NCBI GenBank assembly: GCA_000165345.1
Contig: CM000429.1
Coordinates: forward strand, 32,001-96,000
Length of the DNA stretch: 64,000 bases
Direction: 5' to 3'
Below the pieces are notes generated by a model, which worked only from the letters and a program-made list of their open reading frames with translations, had not been told where the DNA came from and made no database searches. Of this stretch, positions 41,007 through 45,462 are shown one piece after another. Position 1 is the first letter of the stretch; every line of letters starts with the position of its first letter. The position numbers and the translations under genes are program-made.

Positions 41007-43451
41007 TTATGAATATAAATCATCAGCATCGTCATCAATGGGAGCAGAGTATTGGGCATGGGTCGAATCTGGCCAGTCAATTGTAAATCCTTCTCCTCCG
41101 GATTGAGTGACATACACAGGGTCAAACTTCATTCTAAACTGATCATATTTGGCAAGGTCGGTAATGCTTACAGATCTTCTCGCTCCAGCAAATGCTTCCT
41201 CAAAATGTTTTCTTCCGATTTCGTAAATATGACTATCTACTTCATCCTCAATTTTCATAGCACTATCATCCCCAGATGCCTTCTTTAGCTCTTCAGCAGC
41301 AATTGCATCTCTAATTGCAGCCTTTGCTGCTCTTTGGCAAAGCTCTGCAAGGTCAGCGCCTGAGAATCCTTCAGTTTTCTGAGCGATAAAAGATATAGGA
41401 ACGTTCTTTGAAAGAGGAGATTTTCTAAGAATAGCTTGTAGAACAGAGACTCTGGCAGGAAGATCTGGGAGAGGGATGTAAATTAACTGGTCAAGCCTTC
41501 CTGGACGCAATAAAGCCTCATCAAGGATCTCTGGTCTATTTGTAGCTCCAATGAAGAAGAGATTCTTCTTAACACCAACACCATCGATTTCAGTAAGAAG
41601 TTGATTCATAACTCTGTCTCCAGCACCACCAGCATCTCCCATGCTGCTTCCTCTTTGAGTGCCAATACTGTCTAACTCATCGAAGAATAGTACACAAGGA
41701 GCAGCAGCTCTGGCCTTATCAAATACCTCCCTAACGTTGGCCTCACTCTCACCAAACCATAAGGTAAGAAGTTCGGGTCCTTTGACAGAAATAAAGTTTG
41801 CAGAGCATTCAGAGGCAACAGCTTTTGCAAGTAAAGTCTTACCACAACCAGGTGGACCATAAAATAAGACTCCACGAGAAGGACTCATTCCAAAACGCTC
41901 GAACTTCTCAGGATGCTCAATAGGGTAGAGTATCATTTCTTGTAAGTTGCGTTTGACTTCTTCAAGACCACCAATATCATCCCATTTAATGTTTGGAACC
42001 TCTACAACAGTTTCTCTCAAAGAAGATGGGTTGCAAACGCCCAATGCAGAGTTGAAGTGATCCTGGCTGACGGCCATAGAATCCAAGATAACTGCGTCAA
42101 TTGTTTCATCTTCCATATCAATAACATCCATTTTCTCACGAATACAACAGAGAGCCGCCTCAGTACATAGCTGGGCCAAATCTGCTCCAACAAAACCATG
42201 GGTATTAGCTGCAATATCATCAATTTTGACATCCTTAGCTAGCTTCATATTTCTTGTATGGATTCTGATAATTTCAAGTCTACCATTATCATCTGGGACT
42301 CCAATATCAATTTCTCTGTCGAATCTGCCAAATCTTCTCAATGCTGGATCAATAGAATTTGGTCTATTTGTAGCTGCAATAACAACAACTTGGCCCCTCC
42401 CTTTCAATCCATCCATAAGAGTTAATAACTGAGATACAACACGACGTTCGACCTCTCCATTAGTCTTCTCTCTCTTAGGAGCAATGGAATCAATTTCATC
42501 AATGAAAATAATCGCAGGAGAGTTCTTTTCTGCCTCCTCGAAAGCTCTACGTAAATTTCCCTCTGCTTCTCCTGCCATTTTTGACATAACTTCTGGTCCA
42601 TTAATCAGGAAGAAGAATGCTCCAGTTTCATTTGCTACTGCCTTTGCAATAAGAGTCTTACCAGAACCAGGAGGTCCATATAATAGGACTCCTCTCGGAG
42701 GTTTAACTCCTAAAGCTTTGAATAGCCCTGGATGACGTAATGGAAGCTCAATCATTTCTCTGATTTGAGCCATTTGCTTTCTGCAGCCTCCAATATCGTC
42801 ATATCCAATATCATCCATTTTTTCCTCATCTTCTCTCTTGATTGGATCACCCTCACAGTGAATTACAGTATCTGGAGCTACAATGCAGTACTCTTCTGGA
42901 TCTACTCCAACAACCTTGAACTCGATTGGACGGAATCCGCCTCTTACCAAAAAAGCATCTCCCTTTTTGACGGGTCTGTAAGCCTCTAGGAAATACGGTT
43001 TCAAATATGTCTCAAAAAGATTACCAGTAATTCCTTCCAAACAGTCATCAAATGGCAAAACATGAATCCTCTTACCATATGGAACATCTCCACACTCAAG
43101 AACAGAAACTGTATCTCCAAGCTTAACTCTCAAGTTCTTCCTGACAACCTTGTTCATACGAATTTTACCTTCCTCCAAATCAGGGTCAACCAATACTATA
43201 CATATTGTATCTCTACGTTTCTTACCCTTTAATAAAATTGTATCACCTCTAAATAATTTCAACTCCTCCATCTTTGCTGGACTTAAACATACAACAGAAT
43301 TATCATCATTAATAGCATCGTCAACCAGCAATCTATTTGGAGCTCTCTTTTTTTCAATTTGACCTGGTGACGTATTATTAGCAGAGGAATCACCATTAGT
43401 CATTTGAACTTCCTCTGACTTTGGAATTTGATTTTCCCCGTCAACATTCAT
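41007..43451 (-). CDS. CDC48: CDC48/p97/VCP type-II AAA+ ATPase.
   Basis: It has two AAA cassettes, [29 protein letters not shown] and [30 protein letters not shown], both with DEIDSI/DELDSI. The N-domain is [34 protein letters not shown]. The acidic C-terminal tail is DDDADDLYS. Confidence 0.97.
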
Positions 43452-43744
43452 TTCTTCTAGATTCCGATATTAATATCTTCAATATATTTATTATGAATTC
43501 TACTTTACCTCTACCTTTTTACTATTGAACCGTTTTAGTAATCGTATATATATACATATATATAAATAAGTATATATTATATTAATGTATATTCATAAAT
43601 GTACTCCTGAATCCAGAATTAATCAGTTTTTATGTTAATTATTCAGATTATCTTTGGAATACTCGCTCTATAATATTCTTTATTTTCTTTTGTCTCCATT
43701 TATTTCCTCTATTCTATTATAAGTGGGGTAATATACCCACATTT

Positions 43745-43766
43745 TACCGCCTAATTTTTGGCGGTA
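43745..43766. promoter_or_regulatory. Perfect 7-bp inverted repeat TACCGCC-taattttt-GGCGGTA inside a conserved CATTTTACCGCCTAA motif, in the CDC48 / Josephin divergent intergenic region.
   Basis: The sequence cacattttaccgcctaatttttggcggtatgtgtgcat lies about 300 bp upstream of the CDC48 ATG. An adjacent GGGTAatatACCC mini-palindrome sits at 43727-43739. A near-identical gcatttaccgcctaaatgtgtg occurs at 56458-56480, and tttaccgcc occurs at 20719-20727. Confidence 0.5.
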
Positions 43767-44268
43767 TGTGTGCATATAATTATTTTAAGTATCTAAGTGG
43801 TTATAAATATTGAAAGTTAATTATTAGTAATTAAAATCAACAAGATATATTTCTTTGATAATAAAGGTGATTGTTAAATTTTCCAAAGTATAATTGAAAG
43901 AGCTGCAATTAAGTTTTTTTTCATATTGCTTTTTCAGACATTTCATGTAATGCATAATTAATCAGGTAGTACGAAATTTAATATTTTATTTTCATCAAAT
44001 AAATATGTATATTTGAAAATATAACATTTATATTTGTTCATAATTAGCGGAAAAGCTTTTCAATTGTGGAAATAGTTGGCTGACTAATTACTATACTTGA
44101 ATCTGAATTCAAGTCTGCTTAACAAGAGTGGGAAATATAAATTATTCCTCGGGAAAGCAATATCTTTATAGGAATGTAATAAATCTAATACCAAAATAAT
44201 TTTAATTTATTAATTGAATATTCAAATATTTATTCTAACTCGAAATAAGTGTTTTTTTTAGTAAAACG

Positions 44269-45462
44269 ATGAGCACAAAAGAGAATGTCATAGTCTATTG
44301 GGAGAAACAAGGAAACGACAGGATGTGTGCTCTACACTGTTTAAACTCAATTCTCCAAGGACCATATTTTGATGAAGCTTTTCTCTCTAAGATTGCTTAT
44401 GAAATAGATGACATGGAAAGACGCTTATTAGAAAAAAGTAACTCAACATTTAAGACAATTTCCGATAATAATTCTCAAAACGCTTCCTACGATGGCTTCT
44501 TCTCAATCATGGTTCTTCAGGAATGTTTACAAAGACATGGGTACTCTTGTATACCAGCAGCAAATCCGAGAGTTCAAGATTATATTTTGTATCCATCGTC
44601 TTGCTGTGGTTATATCATTAACTCATCAGAACACTGGACTTCAATAAGATGCGTCAAAGGAAAGTGGTTTAATTTAGATAGTCTTAAGGCTGCTCCTATT
44701 CACATTGATTATTTCGAGGTTTCAAAGTACTTGCAAGAAATTATGTTCTCTGGAAAGAGTGTTTTTGTTGTACAAAAAATTCAGAATGAAACTGATTCAC
44801 ATTCAATTCCTTTACCTGATCCCGACCCATTCCTTAGACCAATAAAGAACAATGGTAAACAAAGATTTTATCTCACTGCTTCAGAAATTGAGAACCTTGT
44901 TTTGGAGAAACAAAAAGAAGAAAATAGAGTATCTCAAATGGGTGACGAAACCCCAAATAAGAATTTTATGTATTCTAAGAAACCGGTTGAATACTCATGG
45001 CCAACTTCTGGCGGAAATGTGTTGCAGTCTACATTAAATAATGTTGATCAATCTAATGAAATGACATCCGAAGAAAAAGAACTTGAGAAAGTATTAAGGG
45101 AATCTGCAATAGAGTTTGCTAAGAGTATTCCTCTTCCAGATGAACCCCCTGCAGATCATGTCAATTCTATTCAAATTCGTGTCAGGAGCAAGGTTGGATC
45201 ATCTTTTGTCAGAAGGTTTGACAAGACTAATTCCTGTAAGCATCTATTCTCTTGGATCGAATATGAAATGGCACTATTGGGGAATTCAATTCATGGTAGC
45301 CCATATTCTTTCGTTTCTCAATTTCCCTATCTCAAAGTTTCAAAATTTGATGAAAATTCAATTAAAATTTCGAGATCTGATATTAGTGAGATAATTCTTA
45401 ATTCACCAACTTTCAATGACATTGGTATTAATGAGAACACTCTACTACTACTTAATCTTTAA
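44269..45462 (+). CDS. Josephin-domain deubiquitinase (ataxin-3-like) with a UIM and a C-terminal UBX-like domain.
   Basis: The Josephin catalytic blocks are QGNDRMCALHCLNSILQGPYF (Cys), SEHWTSIRCVKGKWFNLDS (His/Asn), and SYDGFFSIMVL. They are collinear with human ataxin-3 (QEGSLCAQHCLNNLLQG, EHWFTVRKLGKQWFNLNS). The UIM-like segment is EEKELEKVLRESAIEFAKS. The C-terminal IQIRVRSKVGSSFVRRFDKTNSCKHLFSWIEYEM...SPYSFVSQFP resembles the UBX beta-grasp (R..GSR..RRF). The gene sits head-to-head with CDC48. Confidence 0.8.
   Translation: MSTKENVIVYWEKQGNDRMCALHCLNSILQGPYFDEAFLSKIAYEIDDMERRLLEKSNSTFKTISDNNSQNASYDGFFSIMVLQECLQRHGYSCIPAANPRVQDYILYPSSCCGYIINSSEHWTSIRCVKGKWFNLDSLKAAPIHIDYFEVSKYLQEIMFSGKSVFVVQKIQNETDSHSIPLPDPDPFLRPIKNNGKQRFYLTASEIENLVLEKQKEENRVSQMGDETPNKNFMYSKKPVEYSWPTSGGNVLQSTLNNVDQSNEMTSEEKELEKVLRESAIEFAKSIPLPDEPPADHVNSIQIRVRSKVGSSFVRRFDKTNSCKHLFSWIEYEMALLGNSIHGSPYSFVSQFPYLKVSKFDENSIKISRSDISEIILNSPTFNDIGINENTLLLLNL

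Follow-up and report, generated by a model that had tools for sequence, protein, structure and literature searches.

A UBX domain in the Josephin protein encoded beside CDC48 in Cryptosporidium parvum: a probable CDC48-docking orthologue of ataxin-3

The locus and the question it raises

Two genes stand head to head in the 64,000-nucleotide stretch of DNA considered here (GenBank assembly GCA_000165345.1, contig CM000429.1, positions 32,001 to 96,000 of the forward strand; hereafter the window, whose own numbering is used throughout). One encodes the AAA+ ATPase CDC48/p97, and the other a Josephin deubiquitinase of the ataxin-3 type with a C-terminal UBX domain. The locus raises the question of whether this pair is a physically linked module of an ATPase and its cofactor, as was proposed in an earlier note on this DNA, and whether the Josephin protein is equipped to bind CDC48 at all. 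The present study indicates that the Josephin protein is an alveolate orthologue of ataxin-3 that probably docks onto CDC48 via its UBX domain, and that the adjacency of the two genes represents genus-level synteny and is probably incidental.

The window was assigned to Cryptosporidium parvum on the basis of exact matches of both proteins of the pair to C. parvum GenBank entries. It is AT-rich, with a G+C content of about 30%. The pair comprises the following features, where ORF stands for open reading frame:

41007–43451, minus strand: CDC48/p97 AAA+ ATPase gene (intron-less ORF, 814 amino acids, C-terminus DDLYS)
42837–43334, minus strand: CDC48 N-domain, residues 40–205 (Pfam), the surface onto which UBX domains and SHP boxes dock
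43452–44268, no strand: divergent intergenic region, presumed bidirectional promoter (817 bp, 23% G+C)
44269–45462, plus strand: ataxin-3-type Josephin deubiquitinase gene (intron-less ORF, 397 amino acids)

The minus-strand ORF coincides exactly with the C. parvum "CDC48-like AAA ATPase" QOY43597.1. According to Pfam, it contains CDC48_N (residues 40–120), CDC48_2 (residues 141–205), two AAA domains and AAA_lid_3, and its N-domain is similar to the N-domains of human p97 and Arabidopsis CDC48A with E-values of about 1e-89 to 1e-91. This gene encodes a canonical cytosolic CDC48. The two genes are divergent, their start codons are 817 bp apart, in agreement with the spacing of about 800 bp given in the earlier note, and no ORF of at least 60 amino acids lies between them. 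A search of this spacer against Rfam for an unrecognised RNA gene gave no family at E≤1.

The Josephin catalytic domain

The plus-strand protein is 100% identical to C. parvum EAK88518.1 (UniProt Q5CT23), and the alignment shows it to be collinear with its orthologues from start to stop. Its N-terminal part contains the catalytic domain:

44290–44778, plus strand: Josephin catalytic domain, residues 8–170 (Pfam PF02099; Gln14, Cys20, His122, Asp137)

The PF02099 profile matches residues 17–169 with 157.3 bits (cut-off 26, E=3.6e-46, profile positions 3–157 of 157). The domain resembles human ataxin-3 (E=8.5e-25) and ATXN3L (5.5e-23) much more closely than Josephin-2 (1.2e-3), and the protein is therefore of the ataxin-3 type, closer to it than to JOSD1/2. 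Residues Gln14, Cys20, His122 and Asp137 align with Q9, C14, H119 and N134 of ATXN3, and all four positions are invariant in 22 relatives, with Asp in place of Asn at 137. Thus, of the catalytic Cys, His and Asn blocks that had been read from the sequence earlier, the first two are borne out as Cys20 and His122, whereas the third residue is Asp. In the full-length model, the Josephin domain (residues 8–170) has a predicted local distance difference test score (pLDDT) of about 90 and is followed by a conserved helix (204–223), a disordered segment (225–265), a helix resembling a ubiquitin-interacting motif (UIM) and the UBX domain.

Human ataxin-3 is listed as a p97 adapter of the VCP-binding motif (VBM) type and not of the UBX type (PMC10641518), as had been supposed. 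Neither an Arg/Lys-rich run nor a polyglutamine tract is present in the 397-residue protein, which has no run of three or more Gln; the VBM and polyglutamine are traits of the animal proteins and not of the Josephin family at large. The similarities listed above identify the plus-strand gene as the C. parvum, and an alveolate, orthologue of ataxin-3, a papain-fold Josephin cysteine deubiquitinase with predicted activity.

The C-terminal UBX domain

The docking proposed here depends on the last hundred residues of the protein:

45157–45459, plus strand: UBX domain, residues 297–397 (Pfam PF00789, model pLDDT of 85–92, Foldseek)

The UBX beta-grasp claimed for the C-terminus in the earlier note was upheld. 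The profile search identified UBX by a PF00789 match at residues 299–363, with 28.2 bits against a cut-off of 21 (E=2.2e-6, profile positions 5–65 of 82). A separate model of residues 236–397, based on an alignment of 17 relatives, has a mean pLDDT of 81, rising to 85–92 over the final 100 residues, and displays a beta-beta-alpha-beta-beta...beta fold with a 20-residue helix in front of it. The Foldseek comparison of this model with the PDB returned UBX domains as the leading matches, Rep8 (2cr5) and then FAF1 (3r3m, 3qx1, 3qq8), the top UBX matches having TM-scores of 0.65–0.77 relative to the target length. UBXD2, PUX5, p47, UBXD1 and UBXD7 were found further down the list, intermixed with SUMO- and USP15-related chains, and ubiquitin and ISG15 were placed only slightly below the UBX matches. 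Several of the matched UBX domains come from structures of complexes with the p97 N-domain (3qq8, 3qwz, 3qca, 9v9o, 9mpu).

The search of PDB sequences with a C-terminal sequence profile was more selective. It retrieved FAF1 (9.3e-6), Rep8 (3.7e-4), p47 (about 0.01), UBXD4 and UBXN2B, and no match to ubiquitin or SUMO. The FAF1 alignment spans the helix, an LPxEP linker and the UBX domain as a single unit, so that the last 130 or so residues look like the UIM-UBX tandem that FAF1, UBXD7 and PUX7 carry.

The UBX consensus includes an Arg in strand 1 and a Phe-Pro-Arg loop between strands 3 and 4, the S3/S4 loop (PMC10641518). In the C. parvum protein, Arg304 lies in strand 1 and the S3/S4 loop reads Phe352-Pro353-Tyr354. 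Pro353 is invariant in the family and Phe or Tyr at 352 nearly so, one relative having Leu; the strand-1 Arg is kept in most lineages and is missing in Plasmodium, and the third loop residue, Tyr in C. parvum, is Arg in Plasmodium and the coccidia. An extra beta-hairpin (residues 364–378, window 45358–45402) is inserted between strands 4 and 5, immediately after the end of the Pfam match. It is conserved in the family and has no counterpart in canonical UBX domains.

These deviations leave some room for another explanation, namely that the beta-grasp is a generic ubiquitin-like domain which regulates the Josephin domain, sets its linkage preference or contacts the proteasome or Rad23, and does not dock onto CDC48. 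The FPY loop in place of FPR, the loss of the strand-1 Arg in Plasmodium and the presence of ubiquitin, SUMO and ISG15 among the Foldseek matches at only slightly weaker E-values would be in line with this, as would two results on Toxoplasma proteins: the UBX-like domain of TgOTUD2 tunes Lys63 activity (PMC10038098), and TgJosephin is functionally tied to TgRad23 (PMC13203982). However, the sequence profile picks out UBX domains and leaves ubiquitin and SUMO aside, the Pfam score exceeds the curated cut-off, and the loop Pro with its preceding aromatic residue persists across alveolates, Plasmodium and the coccidia having [FY/V]P-R-R. In p47 itself, this loop reads FPN. An N345 contact (PMC13078151) is consistent with that. 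A generic ubiquitin-like domain is a very improbable explanation of the C-terminus, and a UBX domain remains the preferred one.

The UIM-like helix and a conserved motif in the linker

Two shorter elements precede the UBX domain:

45067–45126, plus strand: UIM-like helix, residues 267–286, EEKELEKVLRESAIE, followed by the LPxEP linker (predicted helix)
44998–45024, plus strand: candidate degenerate SHP box W244-P-T-S-G-G249-N-V-L252 in the disordered linker (conservation)

The UIM pattern is a helix in which acidic residues precede Phi-x-x-Ala-x-x-x-Ser-x-x-acidic. It is matched by the family consensus D-x-E-L-x-x-A-L-R-x-S-M-x-E, and the C. parvum helix reads E268-E-K-E-L272-E-K-V275-L-R-E-S279-A-I-E282. 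The UIM-like helix proposed earlier is thus upheld, with one correction: Val275 (window 45091–45093) occupies the position where at least 90% of the relatives, other Cryptosporidium included, carry the consensus Ala. Judging by this replacement, ubiquitin binding by the helix could be weakened. The Pfam UIM model gave no match to the Josephin protein at E≤1, and the UIM peptide of ataxin-3 was matched weakly in the C-terminal profile search (E=0.08).

In the linker between the conserved helix and the UIM-like helix, W244, G249 and L252 are invariant or nearly so, and the surrounding sequence is unalignable, with pLDDT below 50. The corresponding motif is WPEGxGYRL in coccidia, FQGKGVSM in the ciliate Halteria and W-x-K-L-G-x-G-x-x-L-G-G in the group containing Amoebophrya. 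The SHP-box consensus is FxGxGxxL (PMC13078151). Only Gly5 and Leu8 of it agree with the C. parvum WPTSGGNVL, where the Trp comes one position early; the ciliate and Amoebophrya-group forms approach the consensus more closely. A possible parallel is provided by p47/Shp1, p37 and plant PUX5, which bind at two sites through an SHP box and a UBX domain: in C. parvum, too, a short Gly-rich motif precedes the UBX domain in a disordered linker, and the two would bind separate sites of the CDC48 N-domain (PMC13078151; PMC10641518). Proteins of the p47/Shp1 type differ from the C. parvum protein in that the latter has no SEP domain.

A profile of the W..G..L motif found no SHP peptide of Ufd1, p47, Derlin or PUX5 among the PDB sequences. 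Its sole match was the Bim BH3 peptide (E=0.16), which was taken as chance. No mention of the motif was found in database names or in the literature located. On the strength of its conservation, the W-x4-G-x2-L motif may contact CDC48, and it seems somewhat more probable that it does not.

Docking to CDC48 and the proposed mechanism

The N-domain of the C. parvum CDC48 was compared with that of human p97 at fifteen positions that contact UBX domains or SHP boxes (D35, V38, F52, R53, I70, L72, Y110, Y143, R113, L135, F139, L140, V176, I182, H183). The UBX-site residues were presumed from p97N-UBX structures. The SHP-site residues were taken from PMC13078151. All fifteen are identical, which makes the docking of the Josephin protein onto CDC48 plausible as far as the conservation of the contact surface can tell.

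In the C-terminal half of the protein, the two or three UIMs and the Arg-rich VBM of the animal proteins are replaced by a linker that is disordered, followed by a single UIM-like helix and a UBX domain of the FAF1/UBXD7 type. The Phe-Pro S3/S4 loop would enter the cleft that separates the two CDC48 N-domain lobes, and the W-x4-G-x2-L motif would perhaps provide a second, SHP-like contact. The Josephin domain might then trim or edit ubiquitin chains on clients being unfolded by CDC48. The same logic would apply to OTU1/YOD1, with their UBX-like and OTU domains, and to human ataxin-3 bound through its VBM.

Distribution of the architecture and related systems

The fusion of Josephin and UBX domains was regarded in the earlier note as an unusual architecture. 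This view is not sustained, since the architecture is already known in databases and literature. The depositors' name for EAK88518.1 is [quoted passage not shown], and TgJosephin of Toxoplasma has been described as Josephin with three UIMs and UBX (PMC13203982). The catalytic Cys of TgJosephin matters for virulence, as revealed by the C24S mutant, and the enzyme has been linked to TgRad23 and SPM1 (PMC13203982). Fusions of a deubiquitinase with a UBX-type domain are also known, from OTU1/YOD1/OTUD2 (PMC10038098). A UBX domain in a Plasmodium homologue of ataxin-3 was reportedly described by Scheel, Tomiuk and Hofmann in 2003.

A survey of Josephin architectures by profile search found the UBX fusion to be widespread, even beyond Apicomplexa. 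Proteins with both domains were found in numerous species of Cryptosporidium and Plasmodium, in Besnoitia and Cyclospora, and also in the gregarine Lankesteria and in the ciliate Halteria. The full-length relatives from Eimeria, Cardiosporidium and Amoebophrya have no precomputed UBX call; three aligned relatives from Eimeria and Amoebophrya match through the UBX region. Judging by these sequences, Josephin-UBX is the standard alveolate form of ataxin-3.

The closest relatives, namely TgJosephin and the entries from Plasmodium, Besnoitia, Cyclospora and other Cryptosporidium species named "ataxin-3, putative" or "josephin protein", are members of one orthologous family with it and have the Josephin-UIM-UBX order in common. 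TgJosephin is described with three UIMs, the C. parvum protein having a single UIM-like helix in which Val occupies the key Ala position; in addition, among the genera compared, it is only in Cryptosporidium that the gene lies beside CDC48. Human ataxin-3, whose role as a p97 adapter and deubiquitinase is established (PMC10641518), likewise has a Josephin domain and UIM-type helices after the catalytic domain. It differs in having an Arg-rich VBM, polyglutamine and Asn134, whereas the C. parvum protein has neither VBM nor polyglutamine, a C-terminal UBX domain and Asp at the corresponding position.

OTU1/YOD1/OTUD2 and VCPIP1 follow the same principle, a cysteine deubiquitinase being tied to the Cdc48/p97 N-domain by an attached beta-grasp of the UBX type (PMC10038098; PMC10641518). 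OTU1/YOD1/OTUD2 possess an OTU fold and a UBX-like domain at the N-terminus, without the canonical loop, whereas the C. parvum protein has a Josephin fold, a C-terminal UBX domain and the Phe-Pro loop. FAF1, UBXD7 (UBXN7) and PUX7 correspond to the C-terminal 130 or so residues, with an acidic A-x-x-x-S helix, the LPxEP linker and UBX; PUX7 consists of UAS, UIM and UBX (PMC13078151). These are non-catalytic adapters with UBA/UAS domains, whereas in C. parvum the module is joined to a deubiquitinase.

Adjacency of the two genes

The neighbourhood of the Josephin gene was compared in seven further apicomplexan species:

Cryptosporidium muris: CDC48 adjoins the Josephin gene, spacer of 273 bp
Cryptosporidium bovis: CDC48 adjoins the Josephin gene, spacer of 1340 bp
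Cryptosporidium felis: CDC48 adjoins the Josephin gene, spacer of 653 bp
Plasmodium relictum: no CDC48 within 10 kb of the Josephin gene
Eimeria tenella: no CDC48 within 10 kb of the Josephin gene
Besnoitia besnoiti: no CDC48 within 10 kb of the Josephin gene
Cardiosporidium cionae: no CDC48 within 10 kb of the Josephin gene

The adjacency is therefore found in four Cryptosporidium species, C. parvum included, where the neighbouring genes are likewise ordered. In C. muris, the order and orientation of a block of eight genes agree with those in the window: AP endonuclease, oxysterol-binding protein, CDC48, Josephin, RRM protein, Noc2, M14 peptidase and Coq4. Since all eight genes are collinear, the pair is no better conserved than its surroundings. 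It is concluded that the adjacency is synteny at the level of the genus Cryptosporidium within a collinear block, and that nothing in these data supports selection for the pairing.

Conserved palindromes in the shared intergenic region

The hairpin motif that had been reported in the shared intergenic region is present, CCGCC-N8-GGCGG being located at 43747–43764. This inverted repeat is unique in the window and did not occur in any of 100 shuffles. It forms part of a larger element:

43722–43766, no strand: conserved double palindrome AGTGGGG-N8-CCCAC-ATTTTA-CCGCC-N8-GGCGG-TA
L005, about 3562–3604: counterpart in the locus of a relative
L001 (C. muris), about 7794–7850: counterpart in the locus of a relative
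L004, about 3226–3275: counterpart in the locus of a relative

The first palindrome, GTGGG-N8-CCCAC, is G-box-like, and the second, TACCGCC-N8-GGCGGTA, consists of inverted E2F-like GGCGG cores. The element lies 272–315 nt from the ATG of CDC48 and about 500 nt from that of the Josephin gene. The same arrangement is found in C. felis and C. muris. In C. bovis, the first palindrome is kept, and in place of the second there are CCCGC/GCGGG cores that lie about 70 nt from each other.

Folding of the element as single-stranded DNA gives two hairpins with an energy of -11.4 kcal/mol (z=-3.8). RNAalifold found no consensus structure in the element of four species, the MAFFT alignment of which had C. 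muris misplaced; on visual inspection, hairpin 1 has invariant arms and the spacing of hairpin 2 is not kept in C. bovis. The elements are consequently read as protein-binding palindromes, and a structural hairpin was rejected on the same grounds.

The cores of the element and a further motif were counted throughout the window, where non-ORF sequence makes up 36%:

GGCGCC: 12 copies, 11 of them outside ORFs (P=1.2e-4); examples at 10783, 18545, 22523, 23998, 28883, 30589, 32496, 34573, 36704, 36742 and 61066
GGCGG: 19 copies, 10 of them outside ORFs
GTGGGG: 11 copies, 6 of them outside ORFs

GGCGCC often occurs within TTGGCGCCAA, and its copies typically lie just upstream of genes of many functions. 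The motif TGCATGCA displays the same bias, with eight of nine copies outside ORFs. GGCGCC and TGCATGCA look like general Cryptosporidium promoter motifs. The cores stand beside genes of unrelated function, and also beside the USP14 gene and the E2/PSMB2 pair described below. They match the E2F-like and G-box motifs that are reported to be the commonest upstream motifs in C. parvum. As the cores are general and precede most genes of the window, they are not evidence for ubiquitin-specific co-regulation.

These data bear on the proposal that the two head-to-head genes form a selected and co-regulated module, in which the double-palindrome promoter would ensure matched expression and hold the two genes together. 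The adjacency does span the deepest split sampled in the genus, between C. parvum and C. muris, and GTGGG..CCCAC with CCGCC..GGCGG has been retained in C. parvum, C. felis and C. muris despite intergenic lengths of between 273 and 1340 bp. A priori, the probability of finding one of 8–20 cofactors among the two neighbours of CDC48 is also low, about 0.4–1%, but this probability was computed after the pair had been noticed and is a post hoc statistic. On the other side, the pair shares its preservation with the whole eight-gene block, four other apicomplexan genera lack the adjacency within 10 kb, G-box and E2F-like cores precede most genes of the window whatever their function, in C. parvum, C. 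felis and C. muris alike the element lies at a shorter distance from CDC48 than from the Josephin gene, and the second palindrome has a different spacing in C. bovis. The physically linked module suggested in the earlier note is thus a weak claim, and selection for a co-regulated pair is improbable; incidental synteny is the reading retained.

Other ubiquitin-system genes in the window

The window contains three further genes of the ubiquitin system, including one for a ubiquitin-conjugating enzyme (E2):

34630–36096, plus strand: USP14 (Ubl and UCH; E=1.2e-64 to human USP14)
59981–60403, minus strand: E2 similar to UBE2G1 and S. pombe Ubc15
61630–61893, plus strand: PSMB2 exon (E=9e-26)

The earlier note had listed USP14, UBC7 and PSMB2. 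USP14, PSMB2 and an E2 are indeed present; the E2, however, is closer to UBE2G1 and S. pombe Ubc15 (1e-51 to 5e-54) than to UBE2G2/Ubc7, the E2 of endoplasmic reticulum-associated degradation (ERAD; about 1e-41). Its ORF begins at approximately residue 26–28 of related E2s, and the PSMB2 ORF spans only residues 51–137 or so of the subunit. As these ORFs cover only part of the proteins, both genes probably have introns or further exons, which are uncommon in the C. parvum genome.

A local excess of such genes, five of about 30, had also been claimed. Ponts et al. counted 114 ubiquitin-system genes in C. parvum (PMC2408969). With proteasome subunits and CDC48 cofactors added by our own estimates, a background of about 157 in a genome of about 3,900 genes, the total being likewise our estimate, was assumed. 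Five of 30 then corresponds to P of about 0.006, and about 0.8 such windows are expected per genome, so the excess is not significant genome-wide. A ubiquitin-gene cluster was rejected for this reason; in addition, the E2 is UBE2G1-like and not an ERAD Ubc7.

Further features of the window

Coq4 is split over two adjacent ORFs on the minus strand (54878–55309 and 55395–55862; profile positions 3–125 and 139–167), which suggests a short intron or a frameshift. Three large ORFs of 933–995 amino acids (838–3729, 7482–10469 and 10940–13741, plus strand) occupy the AT-richest part of the window, and Pfam gave no match to any of the three at E≤1e-4. In C. muris, a gene called Sdh5 (SDHAF2) is located between the AP endonuclease and oxysterol-binding protein genes (L001, 424–798, plus strand), and no ORF of at least 120 amino acids is listed in the matching C. 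parvum interval, 37923–38177.

Discussion

Several points weigh against the view that the Josephin protein docks onto CDC48 and that the adjacency is incidental. The Pfam UBX match is confined to residues 299–363, Tyr stands in place of the consensus Arg at the third position of the S3/S4 loop, and the modelled extra hairpin is non-canonical. No CDC48 interaction of any apicomplexan Josephin was found reported in the literature, and the TgJosephin paper is silent on CDC48 (PMC13203982). The UBX-like domain of Toxoplasma OTUD2 affects linkage preference and not only docking (PMC10038098), and for that reason roles of the UBX domain other than CDC48 binding are possible. Finally, the promoter element is conserved between species as widely separated as C. 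parvum and C. muris, which allows for a genuine joint regulation of the two genes. The profile and fold matches to UBX, the Phe-Pro loop and the fifteen identical contact residues of the CDC48 N-domain nevertheless make docking via UBX the probable reading.

A bolder proposal can be formulated on this basis. The alveolate orthologues of ataxin-3 may have exchanged the VBM for a p47-like two-site module, with a degenerate SHP box in the linker and a UIM-UBX tandem, and would then be stable CDC48 adapters that carry their own deubiquitinase; the Cryptosporidium gene might also share a conserved bidirectional promoter with CDC48, so that the amounts of the two proteins would be matched. It seems unlikely that all of this holds.

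The domain calls made from the raw sequence proved to be accurate, and the supposedly unusual fusion turns out to be normal for alveolates. The SHP-like motif, a candidate for a second contact with CDC48, is new, as are the conserved palindromes of the promoter, and the two constitute a modest, testable lead. The palindromes offer a small, ready example for the study of bidirectional promoters in Cryptosporidium. The predicted interaction between CDC48 and a deubiquitinase can be tested in parasites in which CDC48 and the ubiquitin system are considered drug targets.

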